A DNA stretch of 64,000 nt from a virus. Taxonomy: Duplodnaviria > Caudoviricetes. The translations under genes and the position numbers were made by a program. Shown here piece after piece: positions 4,520-62,410 of the stretch; position 1 is the first letter of the stretch, and each line of letters begins with the position of its first letter. Where the stretch lies: positions 1-64,000 of the IMG/VR virus record IMGVR_UViG_3300028601_000021; one strand, given 5' to 3'. The notes under the pieces are model-generated. The model ran no database searches and was not told where the DNA came from. It saw only the letters and a program-made list of their open reading frames with translations.

Positions 4520-4529
4520 GTAATATATA
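4520..4529 (-). promoter_or_regulatory. phiKZ-type early promoter motif TATATATTAC upstream of chmA
   Basis: Contains TATATTAC (phiKZ early consensus); same motif at 44055, 58096, 62512 and a variant at 53070, all upstream of minus-strand genes. Confidence 0.65.
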
Positions 4530-28239: not shown

Positions 28240-28282
28240 TATATACTACCGTAGTACCTCAGTAGTACTACGGTAGTATATA
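28240..28282. repeat. Dispersed palindrome, ATATACTACCGTAGTAC family, copy 1
   Basis: Same arms at 37308 and 45188; between convergent genes. Confidence 0.85.
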
Positions 28283-28290
28283 CTTTTATA

Positions 28291-37307: not shown

Positions 37308-37348
37308 ATATACTACCGTAGTACCAATTAGGTACTACGGTAGTATAT
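37308..37348. repeat. Dispersed palindrome, ATATACTACCGTAGTAC family, copy 2
   Basis: ATATACTACCGTAGTACC-aatta-GGTACTACGGTAGTATAT. Confidence 0.85.
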
Positions 37349-37356
37349 GTGTATCT

Positions 37357-38301
37357 TTATTTCACTGCACTAGTAAGAGACTTCACGACCAATAAGTAGT
37401 TGTGTTCGGTACGATGTAAGTCCTGTACACAACTAGCATGGATAGAAATGATAGTAGCCAGTACCCTAGCGGTATCCGCTAAATACTTTAAACTAAATCT
37501 ATCGATGGAGATATCTTTTTGATTTTCTAAAGCACTTTGAATCTTATCAAAGTTATCTTCGACGTCTTTGATGTAGCTATGCACCTTACTTAATTCGATA
37601 TAGTACTTCTCCATCTCTAGTAGCTTATCGCCGCTATTCTTAAACTCTTCCATAGACATGAATAGAGTAGAGAACTTTGCATCACCTGTACGTTGATCCG
37701 TATAGACTTTACCTACGTTCTCGTATTCTATCTTAATACGTTTAAGTTCTTGATTACTTAAGTTTAAGTTATCCGGAGCTACGACCTTTACTACTTTCTT
37801 ATTAGTATGTAATTCTTTTAATAACCTACCAGAAAAGTGGGTCATACCCCTAGCCTTGCTCAGGATATTTACGACTAATAAGCAAGAGTTTAATGCCCGT
37901 ATACCGTCCTTATAAGTGCCCTTAAGACCTCTTGGGAAAGGAACTAAGATATTCTTCACTTCACTATATTTCAATCTCATCACTCTACCATAGGTAAAGA
38001 CATTAGATTCATTATAGTAACGTAATTCACTTCTTTTGAAATCTCTATAAGATACAAATAAAGTACGAAAGTTATAGAGGACGTGAGAAATGATATTACC
38101 GATACCATAGATGGTATTCTTAGTAAGAGTGATAAGTCCCTCATTACCAGCTAAATATCTTTCATCACATAGAAGTAGACCTAATCTATCACTATATTCT
38201 TTAGCACTAGAAGCCAATACATCTAAAGGTATATGGATAGGATCTTCTTCATTAAATAAAGGAATTTCTAAAATACTATTATGTAAATTTAATAGGGACA
38301 T
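37357..38301 (-). CDS. Probable internal head protein with prohead-protease site
   Basis: AGNE|G near residue 54 fits the phiKZ S/A/G-X-E cleavage rule; helical, basic mature part. Confidence 0.55.
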   Translation of the reverse strand: MSLLNLHNSILEIPLFNEEDPIHIPLDVLASSAKEYSDRLGLLLCDERYLAGNEGLITLTKNTIYGIGNIISHVLYNFRTLFVSYRDFKRSELRYYNESNVFTYGRVMRLKYSEVKNILVPFPRGLKGTYKDGIRALNSCLLVVNILSKARGMTHFSGRLLKELHTNKKVVKVVAPDNLNLSNQELKRIKIEYENVGKVYTDQRTGDAKFSTLFMSMEEFKNSGDKLLEMEKYYIELSKVHSYIKDVEDNFDKIQSALENQKDISIDRFSLKYLADTARVLATIISIHASCVQDLHRTEHNYLLVVKSLTSAVK

Positions 38302-45187: not shown

Positions 45188-45232
45188 ATATATACTACCG
45201 TAGTACCATTTAGGTACTACGGTAGTATATAT
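45188..45232. repeat. Dispersed palindrome, ATATACTACCGTAGTAC family, copy 3
   Basis: ATATATACTACCGTAGTACC-attta-GGTACTACGGTAGTATATAT. Confidence 0.85.
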
Positions 45233-45240
45233 TTATCTGT

Positions 45241-48932: not shown

Positions 48933-48999
48933 TGATTTGATTTAGTTCACTTTATTTTTAACCGTATTTTAAGCAATTTAATTTGTGGAGTACACCACT

Positions 49000-51363
49000 A
49001 TGATGTTTGATGCCAATGCAAATCCCACAGCTGAGAGCATGTTCGATGCCCTGACAGTCGCGACGGAATCTTTCATGCCCCAGAATCAGGGAGCAGCCGT
49101 TCATTGGACGGATAACCTGTCCGCTCAGGACAAGTCCCTTATCGGTAAAACTTTCCGTGAAGTTTGTCGTTTTATCAATGACAATACTCTTTATGGTAAA
49201 GGCACTCCGGTCGCAGATAACCTTTTCACCACTGGTGTGGGCAACGAGTCGCTGAATCCTTCAGTGAATGTCGTGAACAACATCGGTGTGTCCAAGATCG
49301 CCGACCTCTGCAAAGCTTGTGGCGTGCGTGCTCAGGACCAGAAGAATGCAGTCATGGCTATTGGTCAGCTGCTGGTCAAGATGACTGCTGCCAACGAGAA
49401 CATGTCTCTGTATCGCGACAAACATTTCTCCAACGCTGCTGACTCCGTCGCTGGTAAGTCCATGCGTCTGGTCGACCTGCGTGAAATGCTGCCTTCTTCC
49501 CTGCATGGTGAGTTCCTGAACCAGGCAGCTGGTAACGAAGCTTTCGGTGCTGAGATTGACCGTGTCCTGCCCGACATCCGTGTCTCCATGGCAGTGACCC
49601 TGTTGAAGTTCCATCGTGGTATCCTCGATCGCATCATGCATCGTCGTACCTCTCCTTCTACGATCATCAAGTACGTCATTCCTTACGCTGAAGTGTATGA
49701 CCTGATGAAGTCCATGGATCAGTCCGCTGCAGTCCGTAACGGTAAGGTCCATCGTGTACCTTTCATCAACCTGTATGCTGATCCCAAGGTCGTCTCCAAC
49801 ACTCTGCGTCCTATCGTTGTCCTGAAGGCAAATGATACCGCTGATACCGTCCTGCGTGATGGCGTTCTGAAGCCTAACTGCAAGACCAACGTCATGGACC
49901 TCAGCCGCGTAGCTGGTCAGATCGGTAACAACCACACTGACTACACCGACATCATCGCCGATGGCGTTATCCTGGACAAGGTCTATGTACAGCTGTCTAA
50001 GGTCATCGGACCCGACACTGTCGTAGAAGAATTCGAATTGGTTACCCGTTCGTTCTCCAAGGCTCGTTTGCAGATGCAGGCTAATACCCTGGATTCCGCT
50101 GATCGTGCTACGATCTTCAACCAGTTCTTCAAGTTCAATGAAACTAAGAAGACCACCGCTGGCGCTGACAGTGTGATCCTGGCCGGTCTGACTCCTTCCG
50201 ATTGTATCGAGATCGAAGTCAACATCGCTCCTACGATCAACCTGAAGTGGCACGACGTTGCTTCTTCCGCTACTCTGTTTGTTCGTCCTTACAGCGCTAC
50301 TGGTGCAGCTCCTGCTGCTGCCGTTACCACTGCTCTGACTGGCCTGGAAGCTACCATGGTCGGTTTTGCTCTGGATGCCAAGTACAGTGAAGAGAACCTG
50401 CGTAAGTCGAATGTGGCTATCCGTTCGCATTACCGTACGATGGATTGGGAAATCCCTGTCGGTCGTAACTTCATCGTCGACTATGCGATGAACGAGTCTC
50501 TGCCCGAATACATCATGGCTAACGTGACCGAAGCTATCTCTCTTGGTCAGGATCATCGTGCTATCGATATGATCATGAAGACCATGATGGATGTCTATGA
50601 TCGTGGTCGTGAAGAGAATGCCGATCCTAACTTCCGTGAAGATCTGTACAAGCTCGGCTTTGATTATGTTGCTTCTCAGCAGGTTCGTCCTACTGTGTAC
50701 CTGGGCGCTATCGATCTGGAAGAAGTTGACACCATCCGTAGCTCCGACATCCTCGGCGATATCCGCCAGTATGTTGAACTGCAGCTGATCAACATCCTCT
50801 CCCTGCTTCATCAGAATAGCTACTACAAGACTCAGCTGAATGCCGGTGAGAAGCCTGTGTACAAGCTGGTCACCTCGAACATCATCCTGGAAAACCTGTT
50901 GAATGTCCCGCACATCCACAATCATCTCCAGGCTGCTGCTCAGGATGCTTCTGATACGGATACCGTCGAATACCGTCGTGTCCTGCCTTCCGGTGTTGTA
51001 CTGGAATGTGTGACGACTACTTTCGACTACCTGCGTGACAAGATCATCATCATTCCTTTCCGTGCGAATGATCCTGAATCCGTCCTGAATGCTGGTCATA
51101 ACTGGGATTACGGTACTTACCTGGCCCATTACAACCCGCAGATCGCCAATGGTGTCAATAAGCGTGTGTTTGCGAATGCTCGTGAAATGCCGCTGATGAC
51201 TAACCCCATTGGTCTGATCATGGAAGTCCGTAATATCGCTAAGGTCATCGATCTGTTCCAGCTCGTTGATCCTCGTGGTACTTCCGGTCTGGACATCCCG
51301 AACATCACGAGCAAGCTCCCGGATACGTCCGCTCTGGCTGCTCCTGGTAACAAGACCTGGTAA
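49000..51363 (+). CDS. Major capsid protein (phiKZ gp120-like)
   Basis: About 787 aa; AGNE|AFG maturation site near residue 180; NHTDYTD, SEENLRK; strong codon bias; synteny with DnaB; ATG at 49000 after GGAG. Confidence 0.88.
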   Translation: MMFDANANPTAESMFDALTVATESFMPQNQGAAVHWTDNLSAQDKSLIGKTFREVCRFINDNTLYGKGTPVADNLFTTGVGNESLNPSVNVVNNIGVSKIADLCKACGVRAQDQKNAVMAIGQLLVKMTAANENMSLYRDKHFSNAADSVAGKSMRLVDLREMLPSSLHGEFLNQAAGNEAFGAEIDRVLPDIRVSMAVTLLKFHRGILDRIMHRRTSPSTIIKYVIPYAEVYDLMKSMDQSAAVRNGKVHRVPFINLYADPKVVSNTLRPIVVLKANDTADTVLRDGVLKPNCKTNVMDLSRVAGQIGNNHTDYTDIIADGVILDKVYVQLSKVIGPDTVVEEFELVTRSFSKARLQMQANTLDSADRATIFNQFFKFNETKKTTAGADSVILAGLTPSDCIEIEVNIAPTINLKWHDVASSATLFVRPYSATGAAPAAAVTTALTGLEATMVGFALDAKYSEENLRKSNVAIRSHYRTMDWEIPVGRNFIVDYAMNESLPEYIMANVTEAISLGQDHRAIDMIMKTMMDVYDRGREENADPNFREDLYKLGFDYVASQQVRPTVYLGAIDLEEVDTIRSSDILGDIRQYVELQLINILSLLHQNSYYKTQLNAGEKPVYKLVTSNIILENLLNVPHIHNHLQAAAQDASDTDTVEYRRVLPSGVVLECVTTTFDYLRDKIIIIPFRANDPESVLNAGHNWDYGTYLAHYNPQIANGVNKRVFANAREMPLMTNPIGLIMEVRNIAKVIDLFQLVDPRGTSGLDIPNITSKLPDTSALAAPGNKTW

Positions 51364-51377
51364 TATCTGCTTTATAC

Positions 51378-51426
51378 TAGAGGTAGGGTACTTCGGTACC
51401 CTACCTCTATCTCTTTATACAAAAAA
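51378..51426 (+). terminator. Hairpin after major capsid gene (TTCG loop)
   Basis: TAGAGGTAGGGTAC-TTCG-GTACCCTACCTCTA. Confidence 0.75.
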
Positions 51427-51494
51427 TTAAATAGTCGATGTATTAAAGTACCCTGTCTCCACTATGGTGTAGTGGAGACAGGGATGATGAATAC

Positions 51495-51677
51495 TCAATC
51501 GATATTAAGAGGGGTGAGCTCGATACTCATCATCTCTTCCATGGGTGCCGCTAGTATAGCTTCCATCTTCTGATGGAGCACCTGGAGTTCCTCGTCGGTG
51601 CGGTAACACATGAAGTTACTCTTCAGTGCCGCCATACTAGCTTCCATAGGATCTTCGATCCATTCAATATTACTCAT
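51495..51677 (-). CDS. Small protein, tandem paralogue A (60 aa)
   Basis: Shares I.WI.DPM....A.LKSNF.CYRTDEEL with 51907..52074. Confidence 0.7.
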   Translation of the reverse strand: MSNIEWIEDPMEASMAALKSNFMCYRTDEELQVLHQKMEAILAAPMEEMMSIELTPLNID

Positions 51678-51848
51678 AACAATACCCTATTCCTGTCGAA
51701 ACTAGATACCCCTACCATGTCAGTGTGGTAGGGGTATCGTTTCTCTATATGATTAAAAAGATAAACCTTTAACGGAAAGCACAGCTATCCGATTTTAAAA
51801 TAGGTATAGTACCTATAGATTTCATCCTTCTAATCTGACAGAAGGGTA
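51678..51848 (-). ncRNA. Candidate structured leader/ncRNA, copy A
   Basis: Four hairpins with conserved linkers, matching copy B with compensatory stem changes. Confidence 0.5.
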
Positions 51849-51906
51849 ATACGGTATCTATCATTACCTATCTCTACTATTTTGTAGTAGAGATAGGGGT
51901 TTGGTT

Positions 51907-52074
51907 TTAGATCTCTGTATCTTCTGTGTGGTGTGATTTGTACTCTTCGGCGATCTTAGTCACTCGTTCGTACAAGGTAGCTAATTCTTCATCGGTGCGG
52001 TAACACCAGAAGTTGCTTTTTAGCATAGCTTCCATCACGTCCATAGGATCAGTGATCCACTTAATATCAGTCAT
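51907..52074 (-). CDS. Small protein, tandem paralogue B (55 aa; below the ORF-track cutoff)
   Basis: MTDIKWITDPMDVMEAMLKSNFWCYRTDEELATLYERVTKIAEEYKSHHTEDTEI; AGGAGG RBS. Confidence 0.75.
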   Translation of the reverse strand: MTDIKWITDPMDVMEAMLKSNFWCYRTDEELATLYERVTKIAEEYKSHHTEDTEI

Positions 52075-52247
52075 ACTGGTACCCTCCTATTGAAACCAGA
52101 TACCCTACCGAGTTATATTCGGTAGGGTATCGCATTTCGCTACACGATTAGAAAGATAAACCTTTATACGAATAGTACCTACTACTCGATTTATACATAG
52201 GTAATAGTCCCTATAGATTTCATCCTTCCAATTATAACAGAAGGGTA
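52075..52247 (-). ncRNA. Candidate structured leader/ncRNA, copy B
   Basis: Same four hairpins and linkers as copy A. Confidence 0.5.
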
Positions 52248-52295
52248 CAAAAAAGATAGACACCTTACTGTAATAGTAAGGTGTCTATCTATGGA

Positions 52296-52727
52296 TCAGA
52301 TGTTGAAGTGAGAGACCTTGAAAGCCAAGGCCTTGTTGATGACAAGAATGTCACCTTCCACGAGTCCTTCCATCCAGATAGCCGGAAGATAGGAAGGGAA
52401 CAACTCAGGACGGAAGTCGCCTTGGGTCACCTTGGTAGCCACTGCCTTCTGAGGGGCACCGTGGTTCGACCAGTCGGTGTTCCCTGCCACACGGTGTGGC
52501 CTAGAGAACGCACCAACCATCAAATACAGAGAGTGTTCACGGTCTTCAGGGAGACCGAACCATTCTCTGAGCTGCTTCGGGGTACCCGACAGCTCATCAA
52601 ACTTACGAATCTGGTTTACGTTCATGACGACCAGATGCGCGAGCGGCACATCCCTACCATCGAGATCACTTTCAACGATGGTAGAAATATAATTCTCAGC
52701 CACGTCGATATTTCTAATAATGCTCAT
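52296..52727 (-). CDS. Hypothetical early protein (143 aa)
   Basis: AAGGAG RBS; terminator-like hairpin with U-tract at ~52249-52290. Confidence 0.65.
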   Translation of the reverse strand: MSIIRNIDVAENYISTIVESDLDGRDVPLAHLVVMNVNQIRKFDELSGTPKQLREWFGLPEDREHSLYLMVGAFSRPHRVAGNTDWSNHGAPQKAVATKVTQGDFRPELFPSYLPAIWMEGLVEGDILVINKALAFKVSHFNI

Positions 52728-52760: not shown

Positions 52761-53027
52761 TTAATTAGCCACGATAAGACCATTCTTGAACTGCTTATGG
52801 AACAAGAATGATTCAGTGGCATTACTGAACTTAAAACACTTGATCCGTGGTTCATCATTACCGCAGTATACACATACGGTAACTTCGTCGTCAAAACCAG
52901 CACGATTGGTTCTGATGACTACCTCACCACGATCGGTCGATACCACCCAATGATGGATACGACTGTGCAGCTCAAGAGCTGCTAATGCGCCATCATCAAT
53001 GGCGACTTCCAAAGAAATCCCTAACAT
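52761..53027 (-). CDS. Hypothetical early protein (88 aa)
   Basis: AAGGAG RBS; early-motif variant TATATATAAC at 53070. Confidence 0.65.
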   Translation of the reverse strand: MLGISLEVAIDDGALAALELHSRIHHWVVSTDRGEVVIRTNRAGFDDEVTVCVYCGNDEPRIKCFKFSNATESFLFHKQFKNGLIVAN

Positions 53028-53150
53028 ATGCAGCTCCTTTACATGATTTAATTGGTTTACTTCACTTAAGTTATATATACGTGAAAAAAATTGATCAGCT
53101 ATATAGAGACTACGGTACCAGTAGCATGAGCTACTGGTACTGTAGATATC

Positions 53151-61942: not shown

Positions 61943-62410
61943 TTACATGACAGCGCGTACTGCTTCAGCAAGTGCGTCGATCTGAGCATCGTCGATCAGT
62001 CTGGTCTCGGTGACCTTCAGTTCAACTACACCATACACTTCAGTGTAGGTACCGGGATCGCGCGGCTGGGGGTAGCGACGATGAGCGTGGCCAGTGATGA
62101 CAGTCTTACCTGTCGGGGTAGCTGTCTTCAGGATGACCTTCTGCTGCTTCGGGTTCTCGCCAGCCTTCTTGGCAGCGGCGACTACTTCAGGAAGCTTTTC
62201 CTGAATGAAGTCAATACCACCGGCAGTCATGGCAGCCTTTACTTCGGTGAAGCGCTTCTGCACGTCTTCAGTCAATCCCTGCTGCTTGAGGAACTTCACA
62301 TAAGCAGACTGGTTTACCGAATACAGGTTCTGCTTTTCGTCCTTCTTGGCATTCTCGTTAAAGAATGCCTGGGCTGCCTTTCTCATTTCCTGGTTCACTG
62401 CAATAGCCAT
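61943..62410 (-). CDS. Abundant early basic protein, possibly DNA-binding
   Basis: 155 aa, strong codon bias, GGAGG RBS, early motif at 62512, hairpin at ~61876-61912. Confidence 0.65.
   Translation of the reverse strand: MAIAVNQEMRKAAQAFFNENAKKDEKQNLYSVNQSAYVKFLKQQGLTEDVQKRFTEVKAAMTAGGIDFIQEKLPEVVAAAKKAGENPKQQKVILKTATPTGKTVITGHAHRRYPQPRDPGTYTEVYGVVELKVTETRLIDDAQIDALAEAVRAVM

Follow-up and report, generated by a model that had tools for sequence, protein, structure and literature searches.

A tandemly duplicated structured leader ahead of small acidic genes in a phiKZ-like jumbo phage and its possible action in cis

The DNA examined here, positions 1 to 64,000 of the IMG/VR virus record IMGVR_UViG_3300028601_000021 (Duplodnaviria; Caudoviricetes), is referred to below as the window. 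The source record as a whole, a contig of 156,029 nt that is estimated to be 54% complete, encodes a major head protein of the phiKZ type and a divergent family B DNA polymerase (PF20286), and it contains group I introns. After its capsid gene, on the minus strand, lie two cassettes, each made up of a structured non-coding leader, an acidic open reading frame (ORF) of 55–60 aa and a 3' hairpin. This study is concerned with the leader. We propose that it is a new, lineage-restricted RNA that acts in cis on the small ORF of its cassette in this phiKZ-like jumbo phage, a reading to which we give about an even chance.

A duplicated cassette downstream of the capsid gene

Read 5' to 3' on the minus strand, the locus comprises an ORF of 143 aa, a hairpin termed T1, unit B, unit A and finally the hairpin that ends the convergent capsid gene. 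Unit B consists of leader B (52075..52250, ~176 nt, non-coding), ORF B (51907..52074, 55 aa) and the hairpin T2 (51865..51897, recognised in the sequence and by a terminator scan). Unit A repeats this order with leader A (51678..51850, ~173 nt, non-coding), ORF A (51495..51677, 60 aa) and the hairpin T3 (51452..51484, recognised in the sequence), all of these features lying on the minus strand. Both leaders are supported by their minimum free energy (MFE) folds, z-scores and a covariance model. T2 and T3 are homologous and differ from each other by two compensatory pair changes; T2 has no U-run on the minus strand and is terminator-like on the plus strand in the terminator scan. A preliminary description of this DNA, made from the sequence alone, had pointed to two diverged copies of a ~400-bp unit after the capsid gene on the minus strand. 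Both copies are present, and their ORFs and repeats could be located. The duplication thus stands, but the extent of the unit had to be revised because the homologous hairpin after each ORF belongs to it as well. The repeat unit is therefore the leader, the acidic ORF and the 3' hairpin, ~400 nt in all, duplicated in tandem and since diverged.

Conservation between the copies begins exactly at the 5' strand of P1, the helix that closes the leader. Each invariant block of the leader occurs at two places only in the 156-kb contig: the 19-mer GAAGGATGAAATCTATAGG was found exactly twice (51812-51830 and 52210-52228; chance expectation 0.05), as was the 15-mer TAAAGGTTTATCTTT (51757-51771 and 52152-52166; chance expectation 0.26). 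A covariance model of the leader scores 204 bits for B and 199 bits for A, with only two copies per contig.

On the upstream side, T1 (52254..52290, minus strand; terminator scan and sequence) is a perfect hairpin of 16 bp followed by a run of six U at 52248-52253, the intrinsic-type terminator at which the operon orf88-orf143 upstream ends. Only 2–3 nt separate it from leader B. On the other side, the capsid gene (48985..51363, 792 aa, phrog_3231) runs towards the cassettes and has a hairpin at its 3' end (51378..51409, found by the terminator scan and a motif search and assigned to neither strand). Short leader-like pieces, TTTTTTGTA and GTATAAAG, are found on the minus strand in the 60 nt before this hairpin. 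The core GGTAGGGTA / TACCCTACC is shared by the capsid-end hairpin and the long hairpins of both leaders, which are the only three places in the contig where it occurs. The hairpin at 51378-51409 is the capsid terminator and possibly also the remnant of a third cassette. Between convergent genes elsewhere in the contig, a near-identical palindrome of 46 nt (ATATACTACCGTAGTACC-N5-GGTACTACGGTAGTATAT) recurs at at least four places (window 28244-28290, 37311-37357 and 45193-45240; contig 103185-103231); together with its TTTTAT-like tail it is probably the standard bidirectional terminator of this phage.

Fold, strand and conservation of the leaders

RNAfold predicts the same five-helix architecture for both leaders, with MFE values of -68.3 (A) and -72.2 (B) kcal/mol and single-sequence z-scores of -9.0 (A) and -8.4 (B). 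The consensus that RNAalifold derives from the two sequences has 52 pairs and again the same architecture (z = -9.4 compared with column shuffles). In the predicted fold, P1 pairs the 5' end of the leader, (G)UACCCUUCU(GUC), with the Shine-Dalgarno (SD) region of the downstream ORF (B: 52248..52239 with 52088..52079, which holds the SD AGGAGGG; A: 51848..51837 with 51697..51683, which holds AGGAAUAGGG). The 3' strand of P1 reads AGGAGGGUAC in B, where the helix is a perfect one of 10 bp, and GACAGGAAUAGGGUA (GACAGG-AAU-AGGGUA) in A, and it stops short of the AUG by 4 nt in B and by 5 nt in A. P2 (B: 52238..52215 with 52163..52139; A: 51835..51817 with 51768..51751) pairs GAAGGAUGAAAUCU with AGGUUUAUCUUU, its strands being GAUUAGAAGGAUGAAAUCU and AGGUUUAUCUUUUUAAUC, over 18 bp in A and 23 bp in the MFE fold of B. 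It closes a three-way junction with the hairpins P3 (B: 52214..52197; A: 51816..51800) and P4 (B: 52188..52169; A: 51791..51773). P5 (B: 52138..52119 with 52111..52092; A: 51743..51726 with 51717..51698) is a long hairpin, and each copy of it has 5 + 13 bp. A 2x2 internal loop is present in B, and the 13 bp are kept through a compensated C/G indel or shift between the copies.

The preliminary description had pictured a series of independent hairpins joined by linkers. Its hairpins 2 and 3 (P3 and P4), the long GAUACCC(C)UACC..GGUAGGG(G)UAUC hairpin and the ORFs of 60 and 55 aa were recovered as described, but the independent arrangement is neither the MFE nor the consensus fold, as the segments in question form P1 and P2 instead. 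The 3' arm of hairpin 1 (CCUUC/GAAGG), the linker AUGAAAUC and the invariant UAAAGGUUUAUCUUU are the two strands of helix P2. Hairpin 1 itself is predicted only as an early folding intermediate in transcripts shorter than about 100 nt. When prefixes of the transcript were folded, hairpins 1, 2 and 3 were predicted up to about 95 nt, P2 displaced hairpin 1 at ~105 nt and P1 closed once the SD had been made; enforcing hairpin 1 costs 12–15 kcal/mol.

Among the 145 gene-upstream regions of the 156-kb contig, no other has as low a folding energy as either leader; by z-score, the two rank 3rd and 10th. Other upstream regions that fold far better than shuffles (z -6.8 to -9.4) belong to the genes starting at window positions 62410(-) and 61803(-) and at contig positions 91500(-) and 130637(-), and some of the well-folding regions lie just after early-promoter motifs. 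The genome of this phage seems to be rich in structured 5' regions.

The fold depends on the strand. Transcripts of the plus strand fold at -58.6 and -48.6 kcal/mol, 10–24 kcal/mol less stably than those of the minus strand, and the consensus reaches -46 kcal/mol on the minus strand compared with -22 kcal/mol on the plus strand. The minus-strand fold is the more stable one because P1 and P2 contain at least five conserved G.U pairs, and this asymmetry therefore favours a minus-strand RNA over a DNA cruciform. A structured DNA element, which the preliminary description had left as a possibility, could take the form of a cruciform, a replication or packaging signal or a set of inverted repeats bound by protein. 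The many inverted repeats, the position between convergent transcription units and the GGTAGGGTA motif common to the capsid terminator would suit such an element. However, the conserved G.U pairs are C.A mismatches on the other strand, the stems covary with differing sequence, which a sequence-specific DNA-binding site would not tolerate, and the pairing of P1 and P2 spans 50–160 nt. We thus regard a DNA element as very improbable and as the least likely of all explanations considered.

The two leaders are 76% identical over ungapped columns, whereas the first 123 nt of the two ORFs are 58.5% identical (61, 71 and 44% at the three codon positions), so that the non-coding part is the better conserved one. 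The alignment of the leaders contains six single-base gaps, which shows that they are not coding. Four pairs of the 52-pair consensus have changed on both sides, two of these compensatory pairs belonging to P1; seven pairs have changed on one side and none is broken. P3, P4 and P5 have different loops in the two copies.

The leader belongs to no catalogued RNA family, in agreement with the preliminary description, which had called the element unnamed. A check of the whole window against Rfam 15 at gathering thresholds returned only two group I introns (303-990), and an E-value search of positions 51350-52350 gave ncr1575 as the best match, with 29.1 and 24.5 bits compared with a cut-off of 60. 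The introns lie at 303-609 and 748-990 on the minus strand and score 91.7 and 66.6 bits, above the gathering threshold. Several established kinds of RNA element were considered and rejected. Membership in a known riboswitch class is contradicted by the missing Rfam match, the detection in a single phage lineage only and the loops that differ between the copies, and a hammerhead or other ribozyme by the absence of any Rfam signal at E up to 10. An RNA thermometer does not fit a P1 that is a GC-containing helix of 10–12 bp inside a fold of -70 kcal/mol. A leader peptide could start at the AUG in GGAUGAAAUC, giving a frame of 18 codons in A and of 10 codons in B, but an indel of 1 nt shifts the frame after codon 7 and the GAAGG abuts the AUG without spacing.

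Small proteins, distribution and strain variation

The products of ORF A and ORF B are homologues that share 56% identity over 41 aa (E = 2e-17), and both are strongly acidic, with isoelectric points (pI) of 4.15 (A) and 4.5 (B) and 12–13 acidic compared with 3–6 basic residues. Helices are predicted at residues 10-21, 28-43 and 46-49 of the ORF A product, and the ORF B product is predicted to be helical as well. An AlphaFold model of the small protein shows two or three helices at low confidence (pLDDT, the predicted local distance difference test score, of 63). No Pfam or PHROGs family was assigned, the best Pfam E-values of 0.02–0.09 being well short of the cut-offs, and the Atlas returned generic helical hairpins only.

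The preliminary description had considered that the small protein might bind the RNA and thereby regulate itself, or that the two might form an antitoxin-like pair. Autoregulation of this kind is unlikely because both proteins are strongly acidic. A type I toxin-antitoxin system was rejected since the proteins are hydrophilic and acidic and antisense promoter sites are found at the frequency expected (4 compared with 3.9), and a type III system since neither a short-repeat array nor a ToxN-like domain was found. The cassettes resemble ToxIN in that a structured or repeated RNA lies directly upstream of a protein gene with a hairpin in between. They differ from it in lacking an array of ~36-nt repeats, in that the whole RNA-plus-ORF unit is repeated and in that the ORF encodes an acidic protein of 55–60 aa.

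Close relatives of the small proteins exist in other assemblies: P0001, P0002 and P0008 are 87–92% identical to the ORF A product, and P0011, P0012 and P0003 are identical or near-identical to that of ORF B. P0002 and P0003 are encoded by one Logan contig of 3378 bp, P0008 by an ENA contig of 3718 bp, and P0012 and P0011 by contigs of 29 kb and 254 kb; the capsid protein has relatives at 60–97% identity as well (P0013-P0019). Beyond these the cassette was not found. A hidden Markov model of the small protein, compared with 1.84 billion representatives, matched one A-type and one B-type cluster only, the remaining four matches being long, unrelated proteins. GenBank phages searched by DNA and by capsid protein gave no match. 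IMG/VR, searched by leader patterns and by peptides of the small proteins, the capsid and the neighbouring genes, gave chance matches only, as checked with nhmmer and the leader covariance model. All 31 matches in GTDB genome contigs were due to chance, and protein alignment and DNA patterns retrieved no true match from metagenome contigs. In capsid relatives at 28–50% identity (L036-L053), the locus, the protein and the RNA are all absent and a different gene follows the capsid gene. The cassette is thus, as far as these searches reach, a lineage-specific accessory locus.

Parts of the stretch occur in 20 public sequencing runs that belong to 12 studies of landfill, wastewater, compost, manure and bovine samples, and four of these runs were compared. 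Runs X7 and X17 show nine leader substitutions among the listed 40 of 95 differences. Six of these affect unpaired positions, mostly in the loop of hairpin 2 and in the junctions, and three fall in helices, in a predicted fold in which 69% of the leader bases are paired. None breaks a pair: in P2 of A a U.G pair has become C-G, in P1 of B a C-G pair has become U.G, and a further pair of B has gone from G.U to A-U. Three changes in T1 in run X2 (52270, 52272 and 52274) are all located in the loop of that hairpin. Two loose ends in X7 are of a different kind. One, at window position 52085, leads from the 3' part of a B-like leader to a different start, ..AUAAGGCAACAACC AUG UUU AAU GAA GAG, and the other, at window position 52192, carries a variant of hairpin 2, AUAGGUAUUAUACCUAU; in addition, one joint between parts of leader A in this run goes back 159. 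These assemblies hint that related strains place the leader before other small genes and suggest that the number or content of the cassettes varies among strains. In the wastewater strain X2, the upstream gene of 143 aa differs at 27 of 317 positions (~8.5%; window 52260-52450), whereas the cassette parts covered by contigs (51483-52260) show no listed substitutions and a single insertion of 1 nt, in T2. This mosaic pattern suggests recombination at or near T1.

Such variation raises the question of whether the module is chiefly a boundary of recombination and expression cassettes, kept alike by gene conversion, that shuffles small genes and whose hairpins only terminate or stabilise transcripts. 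The tandem duplication with a conserved hairpin ending each unit, the variant ORF start and backward joint of X7, which point to a variable number or content of units, the unchanged cassettes next to a diverged upstream gene in X2 and the absence of the locus from the capsid-related phages would all agree with this explanation. It also has a precedent in the PeSLs of T4-type phages, which are repeated modules of a promoter and a stem-loop (Arbiol et al. 2010, PMC2839356). As in that system, the small ORFan genes of a large virulent phage are flanked by repeated non-coding modules and each followed by a stem-loop, and there are hints that units are shuffled between strains. However, the PeSLs are a short promoter plus terminator, whereas the cassette described here contains a five-helix RNA of 175 nt with pair-preserving changes. 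Assignment to the PeSLs themselves was rejected, as the stem-loops are present but the leaders contain no sigma-70-like or phage early promoter. Against the more general idea of a boundary, the differences between the copies follow the structure, in that they keep pairs or fall in loops, unlike what recent gene conversion would leave behind, and the minus strand of the module shows neither a sigma-70-type promoter nor the phage early motif. A mere boundary therefore appears unlikely to us, and it would in any case be compatible with a cis-regulatory role of the RNA rather than exclude it.

Possible roles of the leader

How the leader is transcribed bears on any role. The intergenic motif (A)GTATATATTACTAnnnTGA occurs at at least 13 sites located 50–130 nt upstream of genes, in the window at 4527(-), 44062(-), 53062-53080(-), 58103(-) and 62519(-) and at at least eight further sites beyond it. 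It is a candidate early promoter of the phage virion RNA polymerase, and we take it to resemble the early motif of phiKZ. The close variant GTATATATAACTTAAGTGA at 53062..53080 on the minus strand heads orf88 (53027..52761) and orf143 (52727..52296) and is the nearest recognisable promoter-like motif upstream of the cassettes. A scan of the minus strand inside and just before either leader revealed no sigma-70-like site, and the phage early motif is likewise absent there. For this reason, the route is left between two options, read-through of T1 and T2 or a middle or late promoter of a type not recognised here. From the sequence we infer that the 5' strand of P1 would be transcribed together with the ORF. 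Metatranscriptome contigs of X17 span ORF A (51526-51685), ORF B (51899-52099) and the 3' end of the capsid gene but not the leaders; as they are blind to transcript ends and strand and might stem from contaminating DNA, they carry no weight either way.

A cis-regulatory leader, which the preliminary description had already put forward, is the best reading of the element because its closing helix P1 contains the SD of the ORF. The leader would be transcribed from the minus strand, fold into a single closed domain and act in cis on the small ORF. In this domain P1 would join the 5' end, UACCCUUCU, which serves as an anti-SD strand, to the ribosome-binding site, with the P2 junction and P5 lying inside. 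The nascent RNA would first form hairpin 1. Once the pyrimidine strand UUUAUCUUU emerges, P2 would replace hairpin 1 and set free the anti-SD strand, which would then close on the SD as soon as this has been made. Translation of the finished mRNA would be damped, with the SD held in P1, and the paired 5' end together with the 3' hairpin would probably make the small mRNA long-lived. Release would need a factor acting in trans, such as a protein, a helicase or cleavage of a long helix. Gating of translation in this manner is plausible but only moderately supported by the predicted folds, in which the unpaired probability of the SD is 0.13 (B) and 0.29 (A) compared with a genome median of 0.38.

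Several observations weigh against this interpretation. The SD is not occluded to an exceptional extent, as B comes 11th and A no higher than 40th among the 145 genes in this respect. Truncating the 5' end in silico leaves the SD paired, so that an on/off switch is not supported. The gap of 2–3 nt between T1 and P1 contains no recognised promoter, and the count of variants among strains is partial since it rests on the listed differences. The preliminary description had taken the kept pairing in the face of varying loops and stems as a sign of selection on RNA structure. The pairing is indeed kept: the consensus shows four double changes, and the long hairpin adds more. The covariation does not reach significance, however, since at least four compensatory pairs also arise in 41 of 300 column shuffles. 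Just two aligned sequences are too few for statistical significance. In addition, gene conversion between the copies, instead of purifying selection, could account for part of the high leader identity. When hairpin 1 was enforced in B, the SD region was still paired, apparently with the pyrimidine strand freed from P2. We hold the switch version of the cis-regulatory reading loosely because of the modest rank of the SD, the ineffective truncations and this enforced fold of B; judged by the predicted folds, the leader looks more like a lock that needs an outside factor than like a self-contained switch.

Cleavage would be one way to open such a lock. The stack of P1 and P2 as well as P5 might be RNase III-type sites that split a polycistronic early transcript into individual small mRNAs, whereby cleavage would remove the anti-SD strand and activate translation. 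RNase III-type processing is known from the early RNA of T7 and the N-leader of lambda. Each leader offers two near-perfect helices of 18 bp and P5 of B has a 2x2 internal loop, the cassettes follow an early-type operon and have no recognisable promoter of their own, and the products would be protected by their 3' hairpins. For RNase III, however, 18 bp is rather short, and removal of the 5' part in silico does not clearly expose the SD, which leaves this proposal highly doubtful.

Occlusion of the ribosome-binding site as a principle is exemplified by SD-sequestering leaders, riboswitch platforms, the early transcripts of e and soc in T4 and the long-distance interaction of MS2. The generic feature of SD-sequestering leaders, a helix in the 5' untranslated region (5'UTR) that contains the SD of the downstream ORF, is present as P1 in both copies. 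Further likenesses are the upstream pyrimidine strand that pairs with the SD and the mutually exclusive pairings of hairpin 1 and P1/P2 with a three-way junction between them. The leaders differ from such systems in that the junction hairpins have variable loops and that neither a ligand nor a protein nor an alternative promoter is known for them.

The closest comparison is with phiKZ itself, which has many structured 5'UTR RNAs and 17 candidates for 5'UTR-derived non-coding RNAs (Putzeys et al. 2024, PMC10914365). Like the leaders, these RNAs of 71–196 nt lie directly upstream of a gene, are of similar size, are kept only among close relatives, have no defined function and belong to a phiKZ-type jumbo phage. 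In contrast to them, the closing helix of the leaders holds the SD and the leader is duplicated in tandem together with its ORF; furthermore, the leaders show no similarity to a catalogued RNA, either in sequence or by covariance model. Structured 5'UTR leaders as a kind are hence already known in phiKZ and other phages, whereas this particular RNA is new. It would work like the structured phage leaders already described, though outside every catalogued family.

The abundant short RNAs of phiKZ and their premature termination inside 5'UTRs (PMC10914365) also lend some credit to another role. The leader could be a stand-alone or 5'UTR-derived small RNA of ~150–165 nt that acts in trans, with P5 as a conditional terminator and the ORF expressed by read-through only. 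It might then be a decoy, a protein sponge or a base-pairing regulator that uses its two pyrimidine, anti-SD-like strands. The better conservation of the leader compared with the ORF, a fold more elaborate than occlusion of the SD requires and a P2 that is nearly invariant across 18 bp, as would fit a sequence-specific partner, are in favour of such a function. P5, a strong hairpin, is moreover flanked by GAAAC and GUUUC in the manner of a weak bidirectional terminator, and the plus-strand scan calls P5 of A terminator-like. An RNA ending at P5 would, however, lose the closing helix P1 that both copies keep. In addition, the tail of P5 (UAGUUUC or UGGUUUC) misses the terminator criteria on the minus strand, no target in trans was found and there are just two copies per contig. 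On balance, we consider a small RNA acting in trans rather doubtful.

The most far-reaching interpretation is that the leader represents a new class of phage RNA switch with two registers that times the production of small acidic proteins, or else a decoy acting in trans. We deem it improbable. Here, the purine strands GAAGGAUGAAA and the SD would exchange partners among the pyrimidine strands UACCCUUCU and UUUAUCUUU. The junction of P2, P3 and P4 would detect a factor of the phage or of the host, or undergo cleavage, and would thereby time the release of small acidic proteins involved in host takeover or anti-defence. If this were true, control in a phage whose transcription and translation are kept apart would lie mainly with such a pre-folded lock.

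Returning to the cis-regulatory reading, jumbo phages of the phiKZ type take charge of transcription themselves, and how they regulate genes after that stage is poorly understood. The element is compact and experimentally tractable, and its two naturally diverged copies can serve as mutational controls for each other. If the fold does not gate expression, the leader is one more uncatalogued structured RNA of narrow distribution. If it does gate translation or the life-span of the mRNA, it would offer a handle on how such phages dose their small host-directed proteins and might yield a portable regulatory part.

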